A DNA stretch of 64,000 nt. Source: Minisyncoccia bacterium. GTDB lineage: Bacteria > Patescibacteriota > Minisyncoccia > Phycocordibacterales > Phycocordibacteraceae. How positions within the stretch are numbered: position 1 is the first letter of the stretch; every line of letters begins with the position of its first letter. A program made the position numbers and the translations under genes. Positions 3,855 to 20,425 of this stretch are shown piece after piece. The stretch is taken from the NCBI GenBank assembly GCA_038207395.1, contig JBBQZW010000001.1, forward strand, positions 13,530-77,529. The letters are read 5' to 3'. The notes under the pieces are model-generated. The model was not told where the DNA came from. It worked only from the letters and a program-made list of their open reading frames with translations, and ran no database searches.

Positions 3855-4700
3855 ATGACCGTACGTCGTTTACTTCGTATTAGCCGCCCACGCTTTTGGC
3901 TGTATGAGCTTGGTACGTTTGTGGTGGGGGTAGTTGCTGCATACGCGCACGGCGCACCTGCTTCCAGCATACTTTCCATCAGTACCGCGGCATTCTTTGC
4001 GTATTTTCTCTTTCCGGCAAATCTCTACATTTACGGAATTAATGATATCTACGATTACGAAACTGATCGCTTGAATCCAAAAAAGACTGCATATGAGGCT
4101 CTTGTAATGCCCGATGAGCACGCCACGCTGTGGCGTGCCATTCTAATCACCACTATTCCGTTCGCCGCTTTCCTCATGGGCGCTCCAATTTCTGCGTGGA
4201 TTGCATTCAGTGTATTTTTGTTCTTCGCGTGTTTCTATTCTGCTCCCCCGATACGGGCAAAAATACGGCCTGGGCTTGATAGCCTTTTTAGTGCTGGACA
4301 TTATGTTGCCACGGGAGTCTTTGGATATCTTCTTGTCGGAGCCACGAGTCTCAGCTATCTTCCTGTAGCCGCAGCAATGTTCTGGGCTATTGCCATGCAT
4401 GCATATTCCGCAGTTCCTGATATTCAGGCAGATAGTGAAGGAGGGCTTGCAACTATTGCCACTAGCTTAGGCAAACAAGGAACTATTCTTGTGTGTCTTG
4501 TCCTGTATACACTTGCCAGTGTCATGGCTCTTCCGTATCTTGGCGTATCCGTCCTACTCCTAGGTGCCGTGTACACCGCGCTTATGGTACTTTCGCTTTT
4601 TGCTCGTAGTGAAAAGACCTTGTTCTCCATATACAAGGTCTTTCCAACAGTAAACGCCTTAGCAGGAATGGCGATATTTTTCCTTACGCTGTATCACTAG
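3855..4700 (+). CDS. UbiA-family prenyltransferase (integral membrane), candidate lycopene elongase/carotenoid prenyltransferase
   Basis: 281 aa, multi-TM. NDIYDYETD (NDxxDxxxD) and DIQAD (DxxxD) motifs. Divergent from the crtIBE genes. Confidence 0.8.
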   Translation: MTVRRLLRISRPRFWLYELGTFVVGVVAAYAHGAPASSILSISTAAFFAYFLFPANLYIYGINDIYDYETDRLNPKKTAYEALVMPDEHATLWRAILITTIPFAAFLMGAPISAWIAFSVFLFFACFYSAPPIRAKIRPGLDSLFSAGHYVATGVFGYLLVGATSLSYLPVAAAMFWAIAMHAYSAVPDIQADSEGGLATIATSLGKQGTILVCLVLYTLASVMALPYLGVSVLLLGAVYTALMVLSLFARSEKTLFSIYKVFPTVNALAGMAIFFLTLYH

Positions 4701-6201
4701 GAATCATTTCAGTGAGTGGTTCTGGCGTTTTAATTCCCATGATGCGCTTGTACGCGAGTTCGGCCGAAATAAGACAGATCGGCATACCAATGCCGGGATT
4801 TGTACCGGCTCCTACGTAGTAGAGATTCGAGACCTTCTTACTTACGTTATTTGGGCGGAAGGTCGCCGTTTGCCCTAAGGTGTGAGCAAGCCCGAGCGCA
4901 CTTCCTCCAAGTGAGTGGTAGTCACGGGTAAAGTCGTCAGGAGTATACGTGCGAATATATTCAATACGCGAACGAAGATTTGGGATTTTCATTTCCACCT
5001 CAAGCATTTCAAGTATCTTCGTTTGGTATGCTTCAAGCATCTCTGCAGAATATTCCACACCAGCTCCTATCGGTACTAAGACAAAGAGATTTTCTTTTCC
5101 AGCAGGTGCAACGCTTTTATCGGTCTTAGAGGGACAGCACACGTAAAATGAAGGAGCATTCGGCAGAGTTGGTGACTCAAATATTTCATCAAAGTTTTTC
5201 TTCCAGTCTTTTGCGAAGAATAGGTTGTGGTGCACCAGTGAGTCTACTGACCCATCAACCCCTAAATACATAATGAATGCAGAAGGTGCGAGTGTTCGGT
5301 TCTTCCAATACGACGCCTTAAAACTTTGATCCTTCGAACTAAGAAGTGCTGTTTCAGTGTGCGCAATGTCAGCGTTCGAGATAATCAAGTCTGCGGTAAG
5401 TTTCTCCCCATTCGTGAGTATCACACCCGTTGCAACTCTTCCCTTTGTTTCTATATGGGAGACTTCAGTATCAGTGCGGATCTCTGCGCCATACTTTCTT
5501 GCAATGCCTCCAAGCACTTCTATGAGACGATATATACCTCCTTCTGGGTAGTACACACCCATATTGAAATCAATATGACTCATTATGTTGTAGAGCGCAG
5601 GAGTCTTATAGGGAGAACTTCCGAGAAACACGAGCTGATACTGCATTATCTTCTGCACCATGTCTGATTTGAAGAATTTCTTTACGTATGTGTCCATGGT
5701 TGAAAATACGGAAAGTTTACGTCCCTCCACCATGGTTCTTTTATTAAAGAAGTCCATGAATGAGTCATAGTTCTTGTACATAAATTCGTTCGTCGCAACA
5801 TCATACTGATATGCGGATTGTGCAACGTATTCCTTGAGCTTTGTTCCACTTCCCGGCTCAAGGGTTTCAAATAAAGCTGCTGCTTTTTCTATATCTGCTT
5901 CAACATCAATAGGTTCATCCTGGTCTTTGAAGTAGATACGGTAGGAAGGTGAAAGCTTTTGCAAATGTAAGTGTTCTTCAATTGGTTCACCAAGTAACGT
6001 AAAAAAGTGCTGGAACACGTCTGGCATTAAGTACCACGAAGGCCCCATATCAAAGCGGTATCCTTCTGCTTCAAACACGTTTGCACGGCCTCCAATGTTC
6101 TTGTTCTTTTCTAGTACCGTTACGTGATAACCTTGTTTTGCCAGCAAACAGGCGGTACCAAGTCCCCCAATACCTGAACCGATGATAAGTGCTTTTTTCA
6201 T
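4684..6201 (-). CDS. crtI: phytoene desaturase family (CrtI-like) FAD-dependent oxidoreductase
   Basis: 505 aa. N-terminal GSGIGGLGTACLLAKQG dinucleotide-binding motif. CrtI/CrtN family similarity along its length. 3' end overlaps the ubiA-like gene by 17 nt (convergent). Confidence 0.85.
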   Translation of the reverse strand: MKKALIIGSGIGGLGTACLLAKQGYHVTVLEKNKNIGGRANVFEAEGYRFDMGPSWYLMPDVFQHFFTLLGEPIEEHLHLQKLSPSYRIYFKDQDEPIDVEADIEKAAALFETLEPGSGTKLKEYVAQSAYQYDVATNEFMYKNYDSFMDFFNKRTMVEGRKLSVFSTMDTYVKKFFKSDMVQKIMQYQLVFLGSSPYKTPALYNIMSHIDFNMGVYYPEGGIYRLIEVLGGIARKYGAEIRTDTEVSHIETKGRVATGVILTNGEKLTADLIISNADIAHTETALLSSKDQSFKASYWKNRTLAPSAFIMYLGVDGSVDSLVHHNLFFAKDWKKNFDEIFESPTLPNAPSFYVCCPSKTDKSVAPAGKENLFVLVPIGAGVEYSAEMLEAYQTKILEMLEVEMKIPNLRSRIEYIRTYTPDDFTRDYHSLGGSALGLAHTLGQTATFRPNNVSKKVSNLYYVGAGTNPGIGMPICLISAELAYKRIMGIKTPEPLTEMIPSDTA

Positions 6202-7061
6202 GACGAGAATATAATAGGAATAGCGTAACGAAGTTTTTGTAAAGTGGTTGTGCTGCGGCGCGCGCTAAATACATCGTAATCTGCTTCACTGATGCGGTCG
6301 AGTATTTTGCTATATAGCACTCGCGAAAGGAGAACTGCTTTTCGCCCTGGAACAGAAAGCATGGGAATACCCTTATCGGCACGCTCATAGAGCACACGTG
6401 CGCGATCAGCTTCGAATTTTAGAAGTTCCTTTAATTCAGGAGTTAGTACCGCACCTTTAACCATATCCTCAGTAACACCAAAGCGATCCATATCTTCTTT
6501 AGGGAGATAGATTCTCTCACGCTGTTCATAGTCTTCTCGAATATCACGAAGGAAGTTAGTAAGTTGCATTGCGTATCCTAAATCCGCAGCGTAGGCATAC
6601 GCATCATGGTCACTAGTTCCGATAATGTGTACAAGCATAATACCTATTACTGCAGCAGAGCCGTGCATATACTCTTTTAAGTCTTCGTACGTCTCGTAGC
6701 GCGTTACATAGGTATCGCGCAACATAGCTTCGAGGAAGGTATCCATCAAAATGGATGGGACTGAATAGGTGACAAAAGCCCATGCAGCAGCTGCCAAAAT
6801 TGGATCTTCGTGGGTTCCGGTTTGAAGCGCCTCATGCCATTCGTGTTGGAGCCTTTCGAGCCGTTCTTTTGCTTCTTCGGGGGTTTTTGATTCAGTATCA
6901 ACTATTTCATCGGCCATACGCACGAATCCATAGAGAGAATAGACGGCATCTTGAATATCTTTTGGAAACAGTTTGGTAGCGTAATAGTAGTTTGTTCCGT
7001 AGTCTTTTGTAAGTTTTTTCGCCTGGCGTATTGCCTCTACAGGCTTCGAAAATGAGCGCAT
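6198..7061 (-). CDS. crtB: phytoene synthase (squalene/phytoene synthase family)
   Basis: 287 aa. Two DxxxD motifs (ADEIVD, DIRED). YAT..LFP N-terminal signature. 4-nt overlap with crtI. Confidence 0.85.
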   Translation of the reverse strand: MRSFSKPVEAIRQAKKLTKDYGTNYYYATKLFPKDIQDAVYSLYGFVRMADEIVDTESKTPEEAKERLERLQHEWHEALQTGTHEDPILAAAAWAFVTYSVPSILMDTFLEAMLRDTYVTRYETYEDLKEYMHGSAAVIGIMLVHIIGTSDHDAYAYAADLGYAMQLTNFLRDIREDYEQRERIYLPKEDMDRFGVTEDMVKGAVLTPELKELLKFEADRARVLYERADKGIPMLSVPGRKAVLLSRVLYSKILDRISEADYDVFSARRSTTTLQKLRYAIPIIFSS

Positions 7062-7062
7062 A

Positions 7063-8115
7063 CTATGTTGTTCGTCCAGCCATACGACTAAGAAGCTCGC
7101 TCCACGCTCTCGTTAGTGATGGTGAAAAATGTTGACTCTCGAGTGCGGAGGCAGCTTCTTGGAGTTCCTTAGCTATGCGTGATCGTCCATAGCTGATTGC
7201 CCCTGTGCGTTCAAAGATTTCTTTTACTAGTCCTGTGTTTTGTTCGCCGCATTCTTTTCCAAAGCAACGAAGGAGTGCTTGAATATCCTCTGCGCTTCCG
7301 TGTGTCATAACGTAATTCGTAAAAATAGTGTGCTGCCCTTCGGAAACATCCTTCAGAGATTTCTTACCCGTTACGCTTTCGCTCCCTACAATATCTAAAA
7401 GATCGTCCTGTAGCTGAAATGCCATACCCAGAGCGGACCCAAAGACCGTACTCCACTCGTCATGCTGGCCTGACATTCCTGCAAGGGCCGCACCAAAACG
7501 AAGAGGATAAATAAAAGTGTATTGCGCAGTTTTAAGGAGTGTTTTTTTCTCAATTTCCTCGAGCGTTGTTTTTTCTTGGCCTGCAATTTTAACATCTAGC
7601 ATTTGACCAATAACGACGGCATATACCATTGCGTCAAACACACTCATGCACTTCTTTGCTACTGAGGTAGAGAGAGTTTCTGTAAGAATTTCTTTTGACC
7701 AATTAAAAACAAGATCTCCAACAAGTATTGCTTGGCTTTGTGCAGAAGCAGTATTGTTTGTCCCTTCGAGTGAGCGAGCGTATTCGTGAAGTGTGGGAAT
7801 ACCATGACGAACTGCTGCCTTGTCGATAATATCGTCATGGATAAGCGCAAACACATGAAAGAGTTCAATAGCAACAAGTATCTCTAAGACGCCTTCGTCT
7901 TCACCTCCTGCAGTCTTGTACATAAGGTAACTGACATAGGGACGGACGCGCTTGCCCCCGGCAAGCGCTATATCTTTAACATAGGCAAGAAGATACCCTA
8001 TATAGAGATCGTTCGAGAATTCAGGCGCTTTTTGAATACGGCTTGAAATTGCCTTTTCCATCAACGGATCAAATACCTGCTTAAAGGTAGTTAGGTCTAG
8101 AATGGCGGGAGTCAT
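7063..8115 (-). CDS. crtE: polyprenyl (geranylgeranyl) diphosphate synthase
   Basis: 350 aa. FARM motif LIHDDIIDK and SARM motif QLQDDLLD. Confidence 0.85.
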   Translation of the reverse strand: MTPAILDLTTFKQVFDPLMEKAISSRIQKAPEFSNDLYIGYLLAYVKDIALAGGKRVRPYVSYLMYKTAGGEDEGVLEILVAIELFHVFALIHDDIIDKAAVRHGIPTLHEYARSLEGTNNTASAQSQAILVGDLVFNWSKEILTETLSTSVAKKCMSVFDAMVYAVVIGQMLDVKIAGQEKTTLEEIEKKTLLKTAQYTFIYPLRFGAALAGMSGQHDEWSTVFGSALGMAFQLQDDLLDIVGSESVTGKKSLKDVSEGQHTIFTNYVMTHGSAEDIQALLRCFGKECGEQNTGLVKEIFERTGAISYGRSRIAKELQEAASALESQHFSPSLTRAWSELLSRMAGRTT

Positions 8116-9059: not shown

Positions 9060-10448
9060 ATGGATATTCTCACTCTTTCGCGCATTCAGTTTGGCGGCAC
9101 AGCAGCATTCCATATTCTTTGGCCACTCCTTTCTATCGGTCTTGGAATATACCTTTTCGTGCTTGAGGCGCTGTGGCTCAAAACGAAGAATGATTCGTAC
9201 TACCGTCAACTTCGCTTCTGGGTAAAGATTTTTGTACTTACCTTTGTTATGGGAACAGCTTCAGGTATTCCCCTCGAGTTTGAGTTCGGTACGAACTGGG
9301 CAGCCTTTTCAAACGCTGCAGGAGACTTTATGGGAAACATTCTCGGCTTTGAATCAACGGTTGCGTTTGCGCTAGAAGCAGCCTTCCTGGGTATATTCGC
9401 CTTCGGGTGGAAGCGTGTGCGCCCCGCTATCCACCTTTTTGCAAATGGCATGGTTGCCTTTGGGGCAACGCTCTCTGCGTTCTGGATAATGGTCGCAAAC
9501 TCATGGATGCAAATCCCAACAGGCATTACCGTAGAAGGTACAAAAATAATCGTGACGGACTATATGGTCGCGATCTTTAACCCTGGCTCACTTATTAGTT
9601 TTGCCCATATGGAAATCGCTTGTATTGAGACGACTCTCTTTTTCATTATGGGTATTTCAGCGTTTGCAATACTAAAAGCCACCGATACGGCGCGTAAAGA
9701 ATTCTTTCTCCAGTCATTTCGTATTGCGCTTGCTATTGCAGTACTTATTACACCGCTTCAGCTATTCTTGGGGGACATTTCTGGCCAAGTAGTTGCAAAG
9801 TATCAGCCAGAGAAACTGGCTTCTCTTGAAATGCACTGGGATACAAACCCGCCAGGCGTTGGTGCAGGGTATTCAGTTCTTGCTTGGCCCGCTATGGAAG
9901 GAGGTCGCAATACCTTTGATGCCCAAATCCCAAACGGACTTTCTCTTATTACTACGCATTCAGTAACCGGTGAGGTAAAGGGTCTGAACGAATACCGTCC
10001 GGAGGATCGTCCGACTCCTATAAACTCAATTCTTACGTTCTACTCGTTCCGTCTGATGGTGCTTTGCGGCATTATCATGTTTGCACTCATGATTGTTGGT
10101 ATGTGGTACTGGAAGAAGGGGCGACTCACCGTCGACGCAGTTACTAAGCACCGCTGGTTCTGGCGTTCTTGGATCTTTGCCATACCCCTCGGCTTTATTG
10201 CCACTGAAGCAGGGTGGATGGTACGTGAGATTGGACGCCAGCCGTGGGTGGTGTATCACCTTATGCGTACAAGTGAGGGTGTTTCTCCGAACCTTTCTGC
10301 CGTACCTGTTGCCATAACGACCGCACTCTTCGCGCTATTCTATCTAGTCTCAATTGTTGGATTTATATACTTTACCTATCGCATCGTCCGCAAAGGCCCT
10401 GATCTTACCAGTCCTGTCATTCGCTACATGCCCCGCACCACGCCATGA
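9060..10448 (+). CDS. cydA: cytochrome bd ubiquinol oxidase subunit I
   Basis: 462 aa. Strong CydA similarity (GGTAAFHILWP..., GWKRV, Q-loop region). Confidence 0.9.
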   Translation: MDILTLSRIQFGGTAAFHILWPLLSIGLGIYLFVLEALWLKTKNDSYYRQLRFWVKIFVLTFVMGTASGIPLEFEFGTNWAAFSNAAGDFMGNILGFESTVAFALEAAFLGIFAFGWKRVRPAIHLFANGMVAFGATLSAFWIMVANSWMQIPTGITVEGTKIIVTDYMVAIFNPGSLISFAHMEIACIETTLFFIMGISAFAILKATDTARKEFFLQSFRIALAIAVLITPLQLFLGDISGQVVAKYQPEKLASLEMHWDTNPPGVGAGYSVLAWPAMEGGRNTFDAQIPNGLSLITTHSVTGEVKGLNEYRPEDRPTPINSILTFYSFRLMVLCGIIMFALMIVGMWYWKKGRLTVDAVTKHRWFWRSWIFAIPLGFIATEAGWMVREIGRQPWVVYHLMRTSEGVSPNLSAVPVAITTALFALFYLVSIVGFIYFTYRIVRKGPDLTSPVIRYMPRTTP

Positions 10449-11287
10449 CCGAGATTCTGCATCTTATTCCAGTGTACTGGCATATGGATTGGCTCCCTGC
10501 CTTATGGTTCTTTACTATTGCTCTTGAGATTGGACTCTATCTGATGCTTGATGGTGCAGATCTGGGTATTGGCATTCTCTCACTATTTTCTAAGAACGAG
10601 CATACTCGAGGGTACGTTATGCAAGTGATTGGTCCTATATGGGACGCAAACGAAACCTGGTTAGTGGTTGCGGCTGGAACACTCTTTGGTGCATTCCCCC
10701 TTGCTTACGGCATCATCCTAAGCGCACTCTACATTCCAGTGATGATCCTCATCTTTGGTCTTATTCTCCGAGCAGTATCCTTCGAGTTCTATCATTTCGC
10801 CTCACGCAAGCGTATCTGGGGACGATTCTTTGGCATTGGGAGTCTGATGGCTGCTGTTGGACAGGGACTACTTGCAGGCGGACTTGTGTCTGGCATTGCT
10901 GTGTCTAATGGTGAGTTTGTAGGGGGACCTCTTAGTTTTGCAACTCCTATCGCTTTCGTGATAACGGCTGGTATTGTTATTGCGTACCTGTGTACGGGTA
11001 AAGCATACCTCGTTCGCCGTCATGAATCATCAGGATCCTTAAAGCGCCTTATGTACCCTTCTGCTCTGGCCGTGCTGGCGGTTGCCTTTGGAACAGTGAC
11101 TATTGTTTTGCTTCCAAACCTCGTGCCGCCGAGCATAACTATCTATACAGCAGCGGCCTCACATAAGACATTGAAGTTTATGCTCTACGGAATAGGGCCA
11201 CTAATTCCAATTATCTTTGCGTATAATCTGTATTTGTATAGAGTGTTCCGCGAAGAGCGTGAGGAGAGCCGTGACGACACGTATTAA
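10445..11287 (+). CDS. cydB: cytochrome bd ubiquinol oxidase subunit II
   Basis: 280 aa, multi-TM. 4-nt overlap with cydA. CydB-like start (DLGIGILS..., WDANETW). Confidence 0.85.
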   Translation: MTEILHLIPVYWHMDWLPALWFFTIALEIGLYLMLDGADLGIGILSLFSKNEHTRGYVMQVIGPIWDANETWLVVAAGTLFGAFPLAYGIILSALYIPVMILIFGLILRAVSFEFYHFASRKRIWGRFFGIGSLMAAVGQGLLAGGLVSGIAVSNGEFVGGPLSFATPIAFVITAGIVIAYLCTGKAYLVRRHESSGSLKRLMYPSALAVLAVAFGTVTIVLLPNLVPPSITIYTAAASHKTLKFMLYGIGPLIPIIFAYNLYLYRVFREEREESRDDTY

Positions 11288-12503: not shown

Positions 12504-13061
12504 ATGACACACACCAATACTTCAATTCCATTAGCAGAAGGTGCACACGTTCCAAACGTAACGTTCAAGACTCGGGTACGTGACGAATCAGTGGGCGGAG
12601 AAAACCCATACCGTTGGGAGGATGTTACCACTGATCAAGTGTTTGGTGGGAAGACCGTAGTGGTGTTCGGGCTCCCTGGCGCATTTACTCCCACATGCTC
12701 AAGTACCCATGCTCCTGGATTTGAGCAGAAGTACGAAGACTTTAAGAATGCAGGTGTTGATGAGGTGTACTGTCTTTCGGTAAACGATGCCTTTGTAATG
12801 AAGCAGTGGGCAGACAAACTTGGAATTTCTAAGGTAAAAATGCTTCCAGACGGTAACGCTGAGTTTACGCGCGGCATGGGAATGCTGGTTAAGAAAGAAA
12901 ATCTAGGCTTTGGAGATCGTTCATGGCGCTACAGTATGCTTGTAAAAGATGGTGTAATAACCAAACTTTTTATTGAGCCAGGTTTTTCTGATAACTGTGA
13001 CAGCGATCCATTCACTGTATCTGATGCTCAAACAATACTTGATGAGGTAACTGCTGCATAA
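12504..13061 (+). CDS. peroxiredoxin, Prx5-like (AhpC/TSA/redoxin family)
   Basis: [22 protein letters not shown] peroxidatic Cys motif. Confidence 0.85.
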
Positions 13062-13078
13062 GTAGCGTACAGAAATAA

Positions 13079-13107
13079 GAAAAGCCCACGCAAAGCGTGG
13101 GCTTTTC
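13079..13107. terminator. bidirectional rho-independent terminator between convergent genes
   Basis: aaaagcccacgc-aaa-gcgtgggcttttc, with T-runs on both strands. Confidence 0.65.
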
Positions 13108-13395
13108 TTATACTCGAACTGAGCGCATCGGCATTTTCTTCTGCGTACGCTTGTCACATTTCATGCACTTAACATAGAGTTTTGGCTTCTCCCCCCCTTC
13201 AATTTTTTTATCCACCTTCCAGTCATGAGCGCAGATAACGCGTGCAATAACAGCACTAATATTTCCTGCACTAAAAACGTACTCTCCCATCATGTCGCGC
13301 AACACATCATGTTCATCGAACGTAAGTGGTCGCTCCAACAGCTCTTCTACATAATCATAGATTTGCTGACGGTAGTGTTTGGGACGTCGTTTCAT
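13108..13395 (-). CDS. small basic protein, unknown function (operon partner of the SET-domain gene)
   Basis: 95 aa, K/R-rich, with a C-terminal C..H...C..C cluster. 10-nt gap after the SET gene. Confidence 0.5.
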   Translation of the reverse strand: MKRRPKHYRQQIYDYVEELLERPLTFDEHDVLRDMMGEYVFSAGNISAVIARVICAHDWKVDKKIEGGEKPKLYVKCMKCDKRTQKKMPMRSVRV

Positions 13396-13404
13396 AATTC
13401 TTAT

Positions 13405-13848
13405 TTATGGAGACGTTTTTACGATACGTTTCTTACCTGGATCATTAAGTTCAGGAGCGCAGGATGCGCATCTGCAAGGCGTACAGTGTTCTTTAGTGTA
13501 CTCTTTTCCATAGTCATAGGTAATTTCATCTCCTAGTTTTATATTTTTCTTAGCAAATATATATACCCGTGCTTTGTGTATAACTGCTTCTGCATTTGGT
13601 TTACACGAATGATTTATGTACCCTGCCTTATTAATCTTTGGCTTGCCATCAAGAGTCTTCTTCTTTGTTACCTCGAATAGATATTTACTCTTACTCGAAT
13701 AGGCTTCGTCTTCTGAAATTTCTCTCCCTACATATTCAATAATACAGTCATCTTTAGAGATCACTGATCCCGCAAACATGCCAAGGCCCGCGCTCGACCG
13801 CTTAACAAGCAGTTTAAAATCTCCTGGAGTATACGTTCGGCGTGCCAT
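13405..13848 (-). CDS. SET-domain protein (putative protein lysine methyltransferase)
   Basis: GLGMFAG, NHSCKPN, GDEITYDYG and a post-SET CTPCRCASC cluster. Start set to ATG 13848; the longer ORF uses TTG and would overlap GH18. Confidence 0.8.
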   Translation of the reverse strand: MARRTYTPGDFKLLVKRSSAGLGMFAGSVISKDDCIIEYVGREISEDEAYSSKSKYLFEVTKKKTLDGKPKINKAGYINHSCKPNAEAVIHKARVYIFAKKNIKLGDEITYDYGKEYTKEHCTPCRCASCAPELNDPGKKRIVKTSP

Positions 13849-13864
13849 AGTTATCTTAGAAACC

Positions 13865-15466
13865 TTAGGCGCCAATCTTAGCACGGCTCTGTGGACCAAA
13901 ATACCCTGTTGCCGGCAGTCCCGCAGCCTTCTGCCATGCTTTTACTGCTGCCGTGGTTGCAGGACCATACACACCGTTTGCCGTGGCTTTTAGATACCCT
14001 TTTTTGATTAGAATGTTCTGTAGCTTGGTTACCTCAGTGCCTTTTGATCCAGTCTTCAAGTCTTTGGTAAACGTTGAGGTGGTTGAAGGAGTGGTCTTTG
14101 GTGGTACTGAAGTCGTGGTTGCCACTGGTGATGCCACTACCGCCGTACTGGTGGTTGCACTTCCAGAACCAGAAAGGCTGGTTACGCGAGACGTTATCGG
14201 ATTACGCTCAGGACTTCCTATGCTTGCGAGTGCACTCCACATAGCGGGGTCTTCACTACCATCAATTTTAAAGATTGCGATACCTGCTACTCCTAGTTTT
14301 TTTGCAAGTACTGCTTTTTCTTTAATAGCTTGCGCGTCACTCCAGGTAACGAATGTTACGGGCGCCTGCTTAGTTTGCTGCTTAGTAAACGCGAGCGCTC
14401 CAGCTGCTGCAAGGTATGCTGAAGCCGTTCCGCTTGGCGCGAGCGCTGAAAGTGTTGAGTTACTTGGAAGTAAGCTTGTTTGTGCCATGTCTACATAACT
14501 GAAGTAGAGTTCGCCTGATGCATTGCGTGTTGGCGTTATGTTGTACTGCTTCGCAAGATCAACAGCATATTTCGGATTAAACGCTGAGAGCTTGGTATAG
14601 GTGAATCCTTTTCCGTCAGGATTCGACATTGCCTGGTACTCAGCTCCGTAGGTTGCAACTCCTAAAAGAATTTTGCTTGGGCTAATTTCCTGAGACATGT
14701 AGTGGATAACTTTCTCCACCCATGCGGTATCTGCAAGTGGTGCGTATAACTGATCACTATATTTGTTATTGAGCTGAATATCTGCAGTCTGCTGGTCGTA
14801 CGTCATAATACGAACGCGGTCACATACCTTGTTTATAACCGAAAGATCGTTCGCATACTCAATGTTTGGAGGAGGTGTTCCTGAGTAACGTGCCTCAAGG
14901 GGCATACGGGCTTCGATAGTACAGTCGAGTGTTAGCTTCGTATTTGCCTTGTAGAGTGCTGCTGATAACTCGGTAAGAAACGCTGAGAAACCAGGACGTG
15001 TCTCTGCCGTCTTACCTTCGTAATCAATATCAACCCCATCAAATCCGTTTTGCTGAATAGTCGTTACGATAGCTTGTATATGTGCAGCGCGAAGGTTCGG
15101 ATCATTTAGAACCGCATAAATGTTTGGAGTATCTGACCACATGATGGTAGGAACAACTTTTACCCCTTTGGCGCGTGCTGCCTGGAACAATGTCTGCCAT
15201 GCGCCACTCCCAATGTTTGAAGTATCGGCAAGAGTGCCGTCTGTTTTAACACTGTATCCAAAAGGATTAATTTCAGTAAGTTGTGAAAGATTTGCATGCG
15301 CGTCTGCAGTTCCTTTTGCTGTGGCCCAGTACGGTATCCACCCCGTGTATTCAAGCGAATTACTTACTGGGGCAGCACTAGCTGCAGGGGCAACGCTGGT
15401 AAAGATAAAAAGTGCGAGCAGTGCTGCTGCGCCTAGTTTGGAAAAGAAAGGTACAAGTCGGTTCAT
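13865..15466 (-). CDS. secreted glycoside hydrolase family 18 (chitinase-like) with C-terminal peptidoglycan-binding domain
   Basis: N-terminal signal peptide. FDGVDIDYEG catalytic motif. Thr/Ser/Pro linker. C-terminal PG_binding_1-like LQNILIKKGYL...GVYGPATTAAVKAWQ. Confidence 0.8.
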   Translation of the reverse strand: MNRLVPFFSKLGAAALLALFIFTSVAPAASAAPVSNSLEYTGWIPYWATAKGTADAHANLSQLTEINPFGYSVKTDGTLADTSNIGSGAWQTLFQAARAKGVKVVPTIMWSDTPNIYAVLNDPNLRAAHIQAIVTTIQQNGFDGVDIDYEGKTAETRPGFSAFLTELSAALYKANTKLTLDCTIEARMPLEARYSGTPPPNIEYANDLSVINKVCDRVRIMTYDQQTADIQLNNKYSDQLYAPLADTAWVEKVIHYMSQEISPSKILLGVATYGAEYQAMSNPDGKGFTYTKLSAFNPKYAVDLAKQYNITPTRNASGELYFSYVDMAQTSLLPSNSTLSALAPSGTASAYLAAAGALAFTKQQTKQAPVTFVTWSDAQAIKEKAVLAKKLGVAGIAIFKIDGSEDPAMWSALASIGSPERNPITSRVTSLSGSGSATTSTAVVASPVATTTSVPPKTTPSTTSTFTKDLKTGSKGTEVTKLQNILIKKGYLKATANGVYGPATTAAVKAWQKAAGLPATGYFGPQSRAKIGA

Positions 15467-15524
15467 ATAAGGAAAGTATACCTGTTAAGACGGACTACGT
15501 CAGCTTTTCTTACCTACGAAACTT

Positions 15525-15602: not shown

Positions 15603-16601
15603 ATGACTACGTATGAAGTACTTGCAACGCCGTCTGCGTCAGGAATTTCGCTCTTCGGAGCGGATGTCCTGCAAGGGCTCAGTAAACGCAAAAAGCAAAT
15701 ACCCGCTCGGTATTTCTATGATGATCGAGGGAGTGAGCTGTTTGATCAGATTACTCGGCTACCTGAATATTACCCGACTCGAGCCGAGACGAGCATTCTG
15801 AGCGCGAATGCAGACTTGATCTGCGAGCTCGTGGGCACTGAACCAACCGACATTGTCGAGCTGGGCTGCGGCTGCGGACCCAAAACGTGGGATTTGCTTG
15901 GTGCACTTCTTTCGAATGGTGCCGATATCAGATATCGCCCCATCGACATTTCAGAGGGTGCGATGAGTACACTTTACACTGAGCTTGACCGCCGCTTTGG
16001 TAGTCGCCTTGAAGTTGAAGGTGTCGTCGCCGAATATAACGGTGGACTTGCTCACTTGAATGCACAAAGCACCAAAAAAGGCCGTAAGAAGCTGATCTTG
16101 TTCTTCGGAGCAAATATCGGCAACATGACGGACCCCGAAGCGGTGCAGTTCCTGCGTGAACTTGGTGAATATATGCAGCCTGAGGATCGACTCCTTATTG
16201 GATTTGATCTGAAGAAGGACCTGCACATTCTTCAGCAAGCATATGATGACAGTCAGGGCATCACAGCTGAATTTAATCTCAACCTTCTGGCACGAATGAA
16301 TCGGGAACTTGGTGCGGATTTCGATCTCACTAACTTTACGCATCACGCGTTTTACGATCCTGCTCGTGAAGCCATGGTCAGCTGGATAATCTCTTTGGAG
16401 GCTCAGCAAGTCAGGTTTAAGGGCATGATTGGAAACCCGACGTTCATATTCCGTGAGCTTGAAGGAATCTGGGTTGAAATGTCTCGTAAGTTCAGTACTG
16501 ATGACATATCAGTACTTGCTCAACGCAGTGACCTGATTGTCGAAAATTGGCTCTTGGATTCTCAACAAATGTTCGTTAATACGATTTTAAGACGTGCGTA
16601 A
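15603..16601 (+). CDS. egtD: EgtD-family SAM-dependent L-histidine N-alpha-methyltransferase
   Basis: YFYDDRGSELFDQITRLPEYYPTRAE, FFGANIGN, LLIGFDLKKD and AYDDSQGITAEFNLNLLARMNRELGADFDL closely match mycobacterial EgtD. Confidence 0.85.
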   Translation: MTTYEVLATPSASGISLFGADVLQGLSKRKKQIPARYFYDDRGSELFDQITRLPEYYPTRAETSILSANADLICELVGTEPTDIVELGCGCGPKTWDLLGALLSNGADIRYRPIDISEGAMSTLYTELDRRFGSRLEVEGVVAEYNGGLAHLNAQSTKKGRKKLILFFGANIGNMTDPEAVQFLRELGEYMQPEDRLLIGFDLKKDLHILQQAYDDSQGITAEFNLNLLARMNRELGADFDLTNFTHHAFYDPAREAMVSWIISLEAQQVRFKGMIGNPTFIFRELEGIWVEMSRKFSTDDISVLAQRSDLIVENWLLDSQQMFVNTILRRA

Positions 16602-16708: not shown

Positions 16709-17329
16709 TTAACGCACTGCGAGCTGTGAGGAAGCTTCTACCATACGTACGAGTTCAGCCTGCGTTGAAGGAATATCCTTAACGTTAATCTTGCCGATCA
16801 CGCGAATGGTGACTTTGCCACACAAACCGAGTGCACGCCCTGGGTTGATCTGGCGTCCGTTATGAGAGACCGTGTTGTCCTCATCAAGCAATACGTCCAC
16901 CGTGTTTGTGATTCGAGTATTCATAGCATCCGCAATAACGCGGTAGCCAATCTGCGACTCAACCTTCTTGTATCCACATGAAGGAGTGTCTGCATTTTCT
17001 CGATCAAGCTCGATGATCGTACCGTACGGAAGCTTTTTTGCGAGATCGCCGGAGCGAGCCGCAACAACTTCAGGGTTCGAGAACGCGCCGCTCGCAGTCC
17101 AAAACGGGTTGTTATCCGTCTGAGCAGGAACAGCATTATATGCGGTGAGCTTGGTTGTGAGGGTAATTGGTGCTACGGGAGCAATAACTACCATCGGAGC
17201 CGGAAGTCGTCCAACCGAAGTTGAACTCGCTACTGCTACTGGCGTCGTTGCTTGCGCAGAGGCGACGGGAGCGGTAACGCTTGCCGGCAAAACCATAAGA
17301 CCCACCAGAACGGGTATTAGGAAAGGCAT
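16709..17329 (-). CDS. secreted 3D-domain protein (MltA/RlpA-like cell-wall binding or lytic fold)
   Basis: Signal peptide. TAYNAVPAQTDNNPFWTASGA is characteristic of the 3D domain. Confidence 0.7.
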   Translation of the reverse strand: MPFLIPVLVGLMVLPASVTAPVASAQATTPVAVASSTSVGRLPAPMVVIAPVAPITLTTKLTAYNAVPAQTDNNPFWTASGAFSNPEVVAARSGDLAKKLPYGTIIELDRENADTPSCGYKKVESQIGYRVIADAMNTRITNTVDVLLDEDNTVSHNGRQINPGRALGLCGKVTIRVIGKINVKDIPSTQAELVRMVEASSQLAVR

Positions 17330-17509: not shown

Positions 17510-20425
17510 TTACGGAATTAAGTTTAGAATCTTACCCGCTCTATAGATAACGCGGCTGGGAGTACCTGTTGGAAATGCCTTTGCTACGTTTGGTTCAGAG
17601 AGTGCAGCTTTGACCGCTTCTTCCTCAGTCGCTGAGGGTGAAATCTGTATTTCTCCTTTCCGTTTCCCTGCTATTTGCACTCCTATAATCACAGCATCTT
17701 CCGTGAGAAGGGTCTCATCAAAGGAAGGCCAGGGAAGTTGGTGGATACTTTGCTCTGAAGGAAGTGCCCCTTCGTTAACTGAAATTTGCGCGTACATATG
17801 TTCGGTAAGATGCGGCGCAAATGGAGAAAGTAGCGTTAAGAAAGTACCAAAGCCGTCATGCGAAATATGGTCTTGGGTTTCGAGCGCATTAACAAGAATC
17901 ATAAGCGCAGAAACTGCAGTATTCAATTTAAAACGCTCTATATCTGCTGACATTTTTATCGTCGCCTTAGCAAGCGCTTTTTGTTCAGCTTCTGTGGCTG
18001 GAGCATCACTAGTTTTTGTACGAAGTGCGTAGCATCGATCAAGGAAACGGCGCATCGCCTCTATGCCTTCTGGTTTCCAAGGATAGTTACCCGGTTCGTT
18101 ATACGAACCAATAAAGGAAAGGTACATGCGTACCGCATCAGCACCATACTTTGCCACCACTTCATCAGGATTAATAACGTTTCCTTTTGATTTCGACATC
18201 TTTTGTCCGTCAGGACCTATGATAAGTCCGCGGTTGTATCGCTCGTAAAACGGTTCAGCGGTTGGAACAAGCGCAAGATCGTACATTGCCTTGTAGAAGA
18301 ACCGTGAATACAAAAGGTGCAGAGTCGTGTGCTCCGCTCCGCCTGAATACCGATTAACAGGAAGCCAGTTTTTCATCACCTCAGTGCTTGAAAATTGTTT
18401 TTCATCATGAGGCGCAAGATACCGCATGAAGTACCATGAAGAATCTACGAAGGTATCAAGTGTGTCACACTCAGGTGTCCAGCCTTCGCCAAATATTCCG
18501 GTAACGCGGTCTTTGAGTTCTTTGCTTGTTGCGAGCGGAGATACCCCTGATGGGGTGAAATCTACGTCAGTGGGCAAAAGCCAAGGTAGGTGTTCGCTTG
18601 GTACCAGGTGCGCCTTCCCTTCCGGGTCATAGACAACAGGTATCGGACAGCCCCAGTACCGCTGACGCGAAACTAACCAGTCGCGAAGACGATAGTTCGT
18701 CGTACGTTCACCACCTGCAGCGTCTGTGATGTCTGCCATTGCCTCCTGACTTTCTCTATTGGAATACTCTCCGGAATTAATGAGCGTGCCTGCGTCCGTA
18801 TAAACATAGTGGTCAGAAAAGATTTGCTCAACGGCATACTGATGAGTGCGTGCGGTGAGCTGCTTGCGTAATTCTTCTTTGGATAACCACACAATCTCGT
18901 GCCGTACTTCCTCTTCTGGAGCCACTGCGTCACGCATGTCGCTCGTTAGCTCCATACGTAAAATATGTCCGTGGGTTAGACGGTTTTGCTCTTTAGGAAC
19001 GTGATAAAACAAGCCATCAACAATTCCGTATGACTCAACTACACGTGCATCGGTATATCCTGTTTCTTCTCGTAATTCACGAAGTGCTGTTTCTGCCGCA
19101 GAATCATCACCTTCCATACCACCGGTGAGGAGGGTGGTCCAGCCAACATTTTTCCACTTTAAAGCAAGATATTTTTCTTCCGACCAGTGTCTTATGAGCG
19201 CTATAACTCCATCAGTAATGGTGACTGGTTCGTCTGATTTAAATGCTCCGGGTTCTTCCGTTTGTACGAGGCGGGGTGCAACAACTTGAACGATAGGGAG
19301 CTCAAACTTTGTTGCAAATTCAAAGTCACGCTCGTCATGTGCAGGAACGGCCATAACCGCACCTGTTCCGTATGAGCCCAGTACATAGTCAGCGACAAAG
19401 ACCGGAATTTCCTCTCTTGTAAGCGGATGAATGGCCATGATGCCTGTAAGTTGTACCCCTGTTTTTTCTTTATTCTCCATGCGCTCCCGCTCTGTTTTCT
19501 TCTTCGCTTCTTCTACGTATGCACGAACTGCAGCTTCGTTTGAGAGCACATCATGCTCACCATCGAGCGCAGCGAGTACCCAGGGATGTTCCGGAGCCAG
19601 CACAAGATAGGTTGCCCCAAAAAGAGTATCGGGCCGCGTGGTAAATACAGCGACTTGGGCGGGGTTGCCGTCAACGTCACGCCACTCAGAATCTTCAGGG
19701 TGTTTTTTAAATGAGAGTGCAAAGGCCAGCTTCGCTCCCTCTGACTTTCCAATCCATTCGCGCTGCGCGCTCTTTATATCTTCGCGCCAAGGAAGTCCTT
19801 CAAGATCTGTGAGAAGTCGTTCTGCATACTTCGTAATAGAAAGAAACCATTGCGTAAGAATACGTTCTTCCACCTCGTGACCACAGCGCTCACAGGTACC
19901 GTTAATAACTTGCTCGTTAGCAAGTACGGTTTGATCATTCGGACACCACTTAACAGCAGCTTCCTTACGCTCTGCAAGCTGATGTTCAAAAAGTCGCGAG
20001 AAAAGCCACTGTGTCCATTTATAGTATTCAGGCGAGCAGGTCGCTACCTCCTTACTCCAATCAAACGAGGCACCCATTGTCCGTACCTGTGCCCGCATCG
20101 TGTCCATGTTTTCATACGTCCACTTTCTAGGATCAAGTCCACGTTTTATAGCGGCGTTCTCGGCAGGAAGTCCGAAGGCATCAAACCCAAAGGGGTAGAG
20201 AACATTTTTACCTTGCATTCGCTTGAAGCGCGCAAAAATATCGGTGATGGCAAAGGCATACCAATGGCCCACATGAAGATCGCCGGATGGGTACGGAAAT
20301 TCAATTAACAGGTAGTACGGATCTTTTGACTGATCAGATAAATCGACCTCATATATTTTTTCTTCATCCCATTTCTTCTGAGCCCATGGCTCTATTTCAG
20401 AGTGATTGTAGAATTCTTTTGCCAT
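17510..20425 (-). CDS. leuS: leucyl-tRNA synthetase with an inserted NUDIX hydrolase domain
   Basis: 971 aa. HVGH, TTRPDT editing-domain signature, GTGAVMAVPAHDERD, NYRLRDWLVSRQRYWG and KMSKS. About 170 extra residues sit between the editing domain and the RLRDW motif. Confidence 0.95.
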   Translation of the reverse strand: MAKEFYNHSEIEPWAQKKWDEEKIYEVDLSDQSKDPYYLLIEFPYPSGDLHVGHWYAFAITDIFARFKRMQGKNVLYPFGFDAFGLPAENAAIKRGLDPRKWTYENMDTMRAQVRTMGASFDWSKEVATCSPEYYKWTQWLFSRLFEHQLAERKEAAVKWCPNDQTVLANEQVINGTCERCGHEVEERILTQWFLSITKYAERLLTDLEGLPWREDIKSAQREWIGKSEGAKLAFALSFKKHPEDSEWRDVDGNPAQVAVFTTRPDTLFGATYLVLAPEHPWVLAALDGEHDVLSNEAAVRAYVEEAKKKTERERMENKEKTGVQLTGIMAIHPLTREEIPVFVADYVLGSYGTGAVMAVPAHDERDFEFATKFELPIVQVVAPRLVQTEEPGAFKSDEPVTITDGVIALIRHWSEEKYLALKWKNVGWTTLLTGGMEGDDSAAETALRELREETGYTDARVVESYGIVDGLFYHVPKEQNRLTHGHILRMELTSDMRDAVAPEEEVRHEIVWLSKEELRKQLTARTHQYAVEQIFSDHYVYTDAGTLINSGEYSNRESQEAMADITDAAGGERTTNYRLRDWLVSRQRYWGCPIPVVYDPEGKAHLVPSEHLPWLLPTDVDFTPSGVSPLATSKELKDRVTGIFGEGWTPECDTLDTFVDSSWYFMRYLAPHDEKQFSSTEVMKNWLPVNRYSGGAEHTTLHLLYSRFFYKAMYDLALVPTAEPFYERYNRGLIIGPDGQKMSKSKGNVINPDEVVAKYGADAVRMYLSFIGSYNEPGNYPWKPEGIEAMRRFLDRCYALRTKTSDAPATEAEQKALAKATIKMSADIERFKLNTAVSALMILVNALETQDHISHDGFGTFLTLLSPFAPHLTEHMYAQISVNEGALPSEQSIHQLPWPSFDETLLTEDAVIIGVQIAGKRKGEIQISPSATEEEAVKAALSEPNVAKAFPTGTPSRVIYRAGKILNLIP
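18758..19270 (-). other. NUDIX hydrolase domain inserted within LeuRS (residues ~386-556)
   Basis: Nudix box GDDSAAETALRELREETGY, flanked by a typical Nudix beta-strand region (VTITDGVIALIRHWSEEKYLALKWKNVGWTTLLTGG...). Confidence 0.7.

Follow-up and report, generated by a model that had tools for sequence, protein, structure and literature searches.

What does a stand-alone SET-domain protein modify in a member of the Patescibacteriota, and is the small basic protein encoded immediately behind it a partner in that activity or only a neighbour on the chromosome? Both questions are raised by a gene pair located in a stretch of 64,000 nucleotides from the genome of a Minisyncoccia bacterium, referred to below as the window. 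The characterised bacterial SET proteins are almost all secreted effectors, with only the pairs cpnSET–Hc1 and Go1-SET–MC1alpha suggesting endogenous targets (PMC3980110, PMC10117894). The own-cell roles of bacterial SET proteins form a largely uncharted field, to which a conserved enzyme of the Paceibacteria speaks. An initial annotation, made from the letters of the window and a list of its open reading frames, recognized the methyltransferase and its neighbour and considered the latter to be either the substrate or a targeting subunit of the enzyme, and the enzyme itself to be possibly secreted and directed at a host. Our literature search yielded no paper dealing with the SET proteins of CPR bacteria or Patescibacteria and, as far as we could find, a clade-restricted pair of SET and zinc-finger genes has not been described earlier; as a functional unit, the pair is a candidate.

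An intact SET and post-SET core

The complete SET signature that had been read from the sequence by eye proved to be correct, far beyond chance, as judged by the Pfam score, the solved relatives and the intact motifs, all of which agree. The protein matches the Pfam SET domain (PF00856) with an E-value of 7.1e-20 and 71.8 bits (gathering cut-off 22.4) over profile positions 1 to 105 of 105, and a search of PDB sequences retrieved the catalytic domains of KMT2D, KMT2C, NSD2, and SET1 as its closest solved relatives (E about 1e-13). The motifs of the protein are G21-L-G23, E38-Y-V-G41, Y56, N79-H-S-C82, E108-I-T-Y-D-Y113-G, and the post-SET C125-x-C127-x-x-C130. In alignments with solved SET domains, G21-L-G23, Y56, N79-H-S-C82, E108-I-T-Y-D-Y113, and C125-x-C127 fall on catalytic, SAM-binding, and post-SET residues, with E108-I-T-Y111-D-Y113 aligned to ELTYDY of KMT2D and Y56 to the Tyr of the YMF motif. 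Neither the catalytic Tyr nor any of the NHSC residues, the loss of which had been considered at the outset, is missing from the protein. The same positions are conserved in the family: Y56, N79, H80, Y111, Y113, C125, and C127 are invariant among 32 members, with G21, L22, G23, and C82 each retained by at least 90% of them. All residues of the post-SET zinc cluster are present (C82 together with C125, C127, and C130, the predicted zinc ligands), the third post-SET ligand being either Cys or His in the relatives. The AlphaFold2 (AF2) model of the protein (pLDDT 72.7) was matched by Foldseek to MLL1, G9a, EZH2, and vSET at a probability of 1.0 and with TM scores of 0.55 to 0.80, in agreement with the beta-fold of SET enzymes. 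Sequence and model thus point with high confidence to an active-looking cytoplasmic lysine methyltransferase, and the 147-aa protein would be a catalytically competent, SAM-dependent protein-lysine methyltransferase of the SET/post-SET type.

A widespread family of small SET proteins

A word-indexed search with the SET protein returned 1,337 clusters, the best 120 of which all contain proteins of 123 to 172 aa with at least 61% identity. Scanning of one genome per species revealed 171 confirmed species-level SET loci, of which 80 were kept for comparison. These 80 loci display 55% to 90% identity and belong mostly to the Paceibacteria/Parcubacteria (Kaiser-, Adler-, Nomura-, and Vogelbacteria) and to unclassified Patescibacteria, with some originating from metagenome-assembled genomes (MAGs) labelled Saccharibacteria. 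Members of the family, at about 55% identity, are also encoded on several contigs of 160 to 363 kb assigned to the Hyphomonadaceae (Alphaproteobacteria). Already in 2014, a search had identified SET proteins in more than 500 bacterial genomes (PMC10117894; PMC3980110). Given this spread and the earlier counts, prokaryotic SET proteins can no longer be called rare, as they were in the initial annotation, and the enzyme studied here belongs to a known and fairly common kind, in which it is unexceptional.

Judging from these identities, the small stand-alone SET family has spread widely among Paceibacteria and evolves slowly there. The maintenance of a bare SET enzyme at such a level of identity across many Paceibacteria, whose genomes are very small, argues for a real housekeeping role, and the enzyme would most likely modify a conserved endogenous protein.

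Gene order and putative transcription unit

The SET gene lies between a gene for a secreted cell-wall hydrolase of the GH18 family and the partner gene, all three on the same strand, and the partner gene faces a convergent peroxiredoxin gene (Table 1). The GH18 assignment is based on matches to the Pfam families GH18 (E = 1e-30) and PG_binding_1 (E = 9e-16).

Table 1. Features of the SET locus in the window (positions are those of the window).
Feature	Position	Strand	Description
Peroxiredoxin gene	12504-13061	+	Convergent to the partner gene; hairpin 13071-13111 common to both
Intrinsic-terminator-like hairpin	13071..13111	-	Begins at the partner stop codon; 8-bp GC stem and UUU loop, then UUUUCUUAUUU
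Partner gene	13108..13395	-	95 aa, basic; N-terminal tail, three-helix domain and C-terminal three-stranded zinc finger (predicted)
SET-to-partner spacer	13396..13404	-	9 nt, ATAAGAATT, between the SET TAA and the partner ATG; both genes in the same frame; read directly from the sequence
SET-domain lysine methyltransferase gene (predicted)	13405..13848	-	147 aa from ATG, pI 9.3; SET and post-SET, no further domain
GH18-family glycosyl hydrolase gene	13865..15466	-	533 aa; signal peptide and C-terminal peptidoglycan-binding domain; ends 16 nt from the SET ATG
Sigma-70-like promoter match	15475..15503	-	CTGACG-17-TATACT, upstream of the GH18 gene; 9/12 consensus positions (consensus scan)

The start of the SET gene was assigned to the ATG at position 13848, as in the public gene call. 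The TTG at position 13899, given as the start in the list of open reading frames, was rejected: it would make the gene overlap the GH18 gene, and homologues begin with MARR.Y.P. The spacer between the SET and partner genes, initially counted as 10 nt, is one nucleotide shorter on direct reading.

The short gaps between the three genes (16 nt and 9 nt), the hairpin after the partner gene and the weak promoter match upstream of the GH18 gene suggest that GH18, SET, and partner genes are likely to be transcribed together in this order. A transcript carrying the pair would then start in the promoter region of GH18, probably its first gene, and end at the hairpin. The hairpin was missed by a simple consensus terminator scan but is clear by RNA folding, with a free energy of -27.3 kcal/mol and a z-score of -9.1 against shuffled sequences. 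The sigma-70-like match is a possible promoter of the operon, although the number of such sites is no higher than expected from shuffled sequences and the match is hence weak evidence.

A basic partner protein with a predicted zinc finger

The second gene of the pair had been described as encoding a basic, K/R-rich protein of 95 aa with a C..H..C..C cluster, and this description holds. The protein contains 21 Lys and Arg residues, has a net charge of +7 and a pI of 9.45, and its Cys and His residues, C55, H57, C77, and C80, are invariant in 42 close homologues sharing 65% to 84% identity. The charge is unevenly distributed, with +5 in the N-terminal tail, -6 in the three-helix domain, and +8 in the C-terminal zinc half. 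The other residues invariant in the 42 homologues are P5, K6, R9, Y13, E17, R22, E28-H-D30, L32-R-D34, Y39, W59, K76, K79, and K82. The pN values of the partner (0.11 to 0.21), obtained with synonymous sites saturated, compare with 0.08 to 0.27 for SET, the partner thus evolving as slowly as the enzyme; such low values despite the saturation mark it as a genuine gene subject to purifying selection.

No match to the partner was found in Pfam, NCBIfam, PDB sequences, or PADLOC. Nevertheless, the ligand pattern C55-A-H57-D-W59 ... C77-M-K-C80, invariant in the 42 sequences, is of the DUF4379 type (C-x-H-x-W ... C-x-x-C), and comparison of the partner family with the DUF4379 treble-clef repeats of P0167 using hhalign yielded a moderate profile–profile match over residues 34 to 83 (86% probability, E = 4.9e-6). 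P0167, a GIY-YIG protein with five such repeats, was itself found by the partner profile (E = 1e-7), the C-terminal unit being common to both proteins. In the AF2 model of the partner (pLDDT 81.7), three helices are followed by three strands (residues 59–66, 72–77, and 83–87), and the model matches those of phage zinc-finger proteins of 43 to 53 aa in BFVD (E = 1e-3, TM 0.66 to 0.71). The partner also matches phrog_4188 weakly, and its two short relatives P0163 and P0165, which retain both halves of the protein, match the same PHROG better (1e-5). The best reading of sequence and model is, therefore, a protein that joins a helical domain to a treble-clef zinc finger of the phage type. The partner is predicted to bind zinc, and it would most likely bind nucleic acid. 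Two hints of DNA binding by the helical N-terminal domain, namely, matches to DnaB_2 (E = 0.007 to 0.09) and to the HTH-repeat protein P0175 (E = 8e-4), were too weak to be used.

The partner family is small. When 1.84 billion representatives were searched exhaustively with the partner profile, only 14 matches emerged, and the main family corresponds to a single cluster at 50% identity. The helical motif of the N-terminal domain, R-x3-Y ... R-x-L-T-x-x-E-H, is common only to several small uncharacterised proteins. P0163 and P0165 are encoded on short contigs together with Trans_reg_C and WDGH genes and without a SET gene, P0163 being located in a phage-like array of tightly packed small genes.

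Conservation of the gene pair

In all 18 partner loci with readable flanks (the window; L001–L007, L009, L010, L012, L013, and L025; and L086–L090), the SET gene is located immediately upstream of the partner gene, on the same strand and at a distance of 4 to 58 nt. This includes L090, where an intact SET gene is masked by an over-extended call of the partner gene. Beyond the 18 loci that were read, 19 further putative SET–partner pairs were matched by the lengths of their contigs. Partner genes of the main family were seen nowhere except behind a SET gene. The two genes are thus kept together wherever the flanks of the partner could be read, which bears out the linkage on which the initial proposal depended.

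The pairing is not a general property of the SET family, however. Among the 80 species-level SET loci, 9 carry the partner and 71 do not, and all 9 fall into one clade of the SET tree, indicating a single acquisition. As for the distribution among relatives, therefore, the pair is maintained in one clade but is absent from the larger part of the family. With 71 of the 80 loci lacking it, the partner cannot be the general substrate or an obligate subunit of the SET family, and the enzyme has another, primary role. No conserved small gene replacing the partner behind SET was found in the partner-less lineages, where the genes following SET vary (YggT-like, convergent, CTP-synthase-like, or a second SET paralogue). 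Fusions of SET and partner were found neither among the best 120 SET homologues nor among the partner matches.

The surroundings of the pair have to be considered as well. Within the partner clade, the gene order is LeuRS, a 206-aa protein, GH18, SET, partner, a VTT-like gene or second SET, peroxiredoxin, YggT, and thymidine kinase. About 50 of 83 SET loci have a GH18 homologue upstream of SET in the same orientation, which makes GH18 a far more widespread neighbour than the partner. Because the whole region is syntenic within the partner clade, adjacency alone is no proof of coupling between the two genes. By contrast, insertions and losses downstream of the pair have involved a VTT/DedA-like gene, the peroxiredoxin gene, and a second SET paralogue, whereas nothing has come to lie between the two genes, and in L007 and L025 the pair is intact although GH18 is displaced or absent. 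Insertions and losses that never fall inside the pair, its persistence when GH18 is displaced, and the equally slow evolution of both proteins favour a functional link between SET and partner.

Possible roles of the partner

The same observations bear on the strongest alternative, according to which the two genes are neighbours by descent and the partner is a phage-derived zinc-finger regulator or remnant with a function of its own, for example, in transcriptional control. The matches to phage zinc-finger proteins in PHROG and BFVD, as well as the occurrence of P0163 and P0165 amid packed small genes in the company of Trans_reg_C and WDGH and not of SET, are as expected for a protein of this kind. 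Furthermore, SET functions without the partner in most lineages, and, considering the clade-wide synteny, the adjacency of the two genes is not exceptional. What such a chance neighbourhood accounts for less readily is that the pair is separated in none of the 18 partner loci despite the gains and losses just behind it and the displacement of GH18 in some of them, that the spacers are very short, that the partner is under the same constraint as the enzyme, and that the main-family partner is confined to positions behind SET. We consider this explanation possible, if somewhat doubtful.

The reading that we prefer, with a probability of about 0.5, is that of a cytoplasmic SET methyltransferase with a conserved endogenous target, joined in one clade by a zinc-finger protein that derives from a mobile element, is co-transcribed with the enzyme, and would serve as its substrate or adaptor. 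The partner gene would have been inserted directly behind SET in one clade and kept there since. The partner could be a dedicated methylation substrate of SET, as Hc1 is for cpnSET or MC1-alpha for Go1-SET; alternatively, it could act as an adaptor taking SET to DNA or RNA-bound targets. Several points weigh against this preferred reading. In a syntenic neighbourhood, adjacency may partly reflect general synteny and not coupling, and relatives of the partner found without SET in a phage-like array would also suit a small gene, selfish or regulatory, that simply happened to land there. Moreover, the DUF4379 link is of moderate probability, the partner remaining below every Pfam threshold.

A more specific proposal is a minimal chromatin-type module of writer and substrate in ultra-small CPR bacteria, in which SET would methylate an invariant lysine of the partner and thereby tune its binding to nucleoid or RNA, the partner being a phage-derived, lineage-specific add-on to an enzyme whose main target would be a conserved housekeeping protein. 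We regard this proposal as unlikely. The partner lysines that may be methylated in such a module are K6 in the N-terminal tail, K76, K79, and K82 around the zinc knuckle, and those of the conserved K-K-M-P tail.

Cytoplasmic or secreted enzyme

Export of the SET protein by an episymbiont to methylate proteins of its host, with the basic partner as a co-secreted helper or chaperone, would agree with the fact that most of the bacterial SET proteins characterised so far, such as NUE, RomA/LegAS4, BtSET, and BaSET, are nucleomodulins that are secreted (PMC10117894). Host dependence is also supposed for Parcubacteria, and a secreted cell-wall hydrolase is encoded upstream of SET. However, no signal peptide was found in the SET protein, whereas that of the neighbouring GH18 protein is obvious: the N-terminus of SET lacks a hydrophobic h-region, its maximal hydropathy (KD(11)) being 1.71, located on the GLG strand, compared to 2.66 in the GH18 signal peptide, although this test is crude and T3SS or T4SS signals could escape it. 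In the AF2 model, residues 13 to 26 already form strands of the SET domain. Searches of Pfam and NCBIfam revealed no ankyrin or other targeting domains in the protein, and the effector equivalog model T4SS_AnkI of NCBIfam (LegAS4/AnkI) was matched only partially, over the SET region, with 30.7 bits against a cut-off of 550. The protein is also conserved at 55% to 90% identity across a class, unlike fast-evolving effectors, and the same family is present on the long contigs of Hyphomonadaceae MAGs. To our knowledge, the hosts of Paceibacteria have not been established as histone-bearing eukaryotes. With no signal peptide and strong conservation of the SET protein, a secreted, host-directed effector, as envisaged in the initial annotation, is highly improbable.

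A conflict or defence module, in which the methyltransferase and a zinc-finger sensor would act against phages, is the least probable of the readings and was rejected, since neither protein has a PADLOC match and SET lies in stable housekeeping synteny (LeuRS, cell-wall genes) across many genera and not in a variable island, with no nuclease, ATPase, or toxin linked to the pair, even though zinc fingers like that of the partner occur in proteins of phages and in homing endonucleases.

Implications

The adjacent, clade-specific zinc-finger partner provides a concrete and cheaply testable hypothesis for an endogenous substrate of a bacterial SET protein. If the partner is a substrate or an adaptor, the pair would allow targeted lysine methylation to be studied in a simple bacterial model. 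Otherwise, the locus would be one more bacterial SET gene that awaits characterisation, next to a gene for a hypothetical protein.

Comparison with known systems

The SET protein resembles the catalytic domains of KMT2 (MLL1-4)/SET1 and NSD, with about 30% identity and the GxG, NHSC, and ELxYDY motifs and a Cys-rich post-SET region in common. It differs from them in being a bare core of 147 aa with a short SET-I insert and devoid of N-SET, AWS, PHD, and WRAD-binding regions, and in its post-SET cluster, which is CxCxxC (CxC...H in relatives) instead of CxCx4C. In its minimal, SET-only architecture and size, it is similar to vSET of Paramecium bursaria chlorella virus 1 (TM 0.80 normalised to vSET), but the identity between the two proteins is 27%, and vSET is a viral enzyme without a Cys-rich post-SET region that methylates H3K27 of the host in dimeric form (in part from PMC10117894). 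With the secreted SET nucleomodulins NUE, RomA/LegAS4, BtSET, and BaSET, the protein shares the SET catalytic domain, but it evolves slowly and is devoid of a secretion signal, ankyrin repeats, and a T3SS/T4SS context.

As for the partner, residues 34 to 83 align to the GEYV ... C-x-H-x-W ... C-x-K-C unit of the DUF4379/CapR-type treble-clef proteins (PF14311, PF21817), from which the partner differs in scoring below the Pfam threshold and in carrying a single copy of the unit, fused to a distinct N-terminal helical domain. Its structural match to models of 43 to 53 aa likens it to the small phage zinc-finger proteins (phrog_4188).

For the pair as such, the closest precedents are Go1-SET of Methanosarcina mazei, which methylates MC1-alpha, and cpnSET of Chlamydia pneumoniae, which methylates Hc1 and Hc2 (PMC3980110, PMC10117894). 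Both are small stand-alone prokaryotic SET proteins, and their substrates are small, basic, DNA-associated proteins of their own cells. The present partner is unrelated to MC1 or Hc1, and its pairing with SET consists in conserved adjacency within one clade of Paceibacteria. By analogy, Go1-SET and cpnSET are nevertheless the best functional template for a SET enzyme likely to be co-transcribed with a basic, 95-aa zinc-finger protein.

Gene neighbourhood of SET

Upstream of the genes for the secreted GH18 hydrolase and SET, the window encodes a conserved 206-aa protein, for which a Pfam search returned no match. Twenty-seven related loci also have it ahead of GH18-SET; taken with the GH18/peptidoglycan-binding gene, it points to SET lying in a conserved neighbourhood of cell-wall genes. 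In the window, a stand-alone EgtD-like methyltransferase gene separates the GH18 gene from that of the 206-aa protein, with no EgtB-like partner seen nearby. The leucyl-tRNA synthetase encoded farther upstream contains an inserted NUDIX domain (residues 425-524), located C-terminal to the editing domain, an architecture common to relatives L001, L002, L086, and L087.

Coordinates of genes in the window and in related loci
Sequence	Position	Strand	Feature	Remark
Window	3855-4700	+	UbiA prenyltransferase	
Window	4684-6201	-	Phytoene-desaturase-like amine oxidase	
Window	6198-7061	-	Phytoene/squalene synthase	
Window	7063-8115	-	Polyprenyl synthetase	
Window	9060-11287	+	Two ORFs, 462 aa and 280 aa	4-nt overlap; read from translations
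Window	15603-16601	+	EgtD-like histidine-specific SAM methyltransferase	Methyltransf_33, E 1e-93
Window	16709-17329	-	Conserved 206-aa protein	Signal-like N-terminus
Window	17510-20425	-	Leucyl-tRNA synthetase, 971 aa	NUDIX domain inserted
L015	4406-4948		Second SET paralogue	
L016	4413-4955		Second SET paralogue	
L022	4375-4950		Second SET paralogue	
L087	3754-4302		Second SET paralogue	
L088	2796-3323		Second SET paralogue	
L002	5336-5908		VTT/DedA-like protein	Similar cases elsewhere
L086	3715-4272		VTT/DedA-like protein	
L087	4350-4904		VTT/DedA-like protein	

Variation of the locus among relatives

Many relatives that carry the partner, the basic zinc-finger protein, encode downstream of it, on the same strand, a protein of 182-190 aa in which a VTT/DedA-like domain is weakly recognisable; this gene is missing from the window, where the partner runs straight into the terminator. 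Some relatives also possess a second SET paralogue; it is divergent, measures 175-191 aa, carries a hydrophobic tail at the C-terminus and is positioned either directly after SET or after SET and the partner, depending on the relative. The two such paralogues scanned matched the Pfam SET domain with E-values of 1e-15 to 1e-17; the window has no second paralogue.

The apparent orphan partner at locus L090 (2164-2620) is an annotation artefact: the public gene call stretches the partner to 135 aa and leaves the SET gene uncalled, and tblastn recovered an intact SET ORF with 69% identity to that of the window. Among the partner-family matches, P0164 (102 aa) appears to be a partner that has undergone a frameshift, because its match stops at residue 49.

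The small SET family, at ~55% identity, is also carried by large MAG contigs of Hyphomonadaceae (Alphaproteobacteria; L063, L080, L082, L053, and L067), on which the genes neighbouring SET differ. Its presence there suggests either that the family moved horizontally between Paceibacteria and Alphaproteobacteria or that it is older and broader.

Metabolic genes in the window

Four genes at 3855-8115 constitute a carotenoid-type set in this Parcubacteria genome, which is unusual for CPR bacteria, given their reduced biosynthetic capacity. Judging from their translations, the 2 overlapping ORFs that follow resemble subunits I and II of a cytochrome bd oxidase; such a putative terminal oxidase is notable because the lineage is usually described as fermentative.
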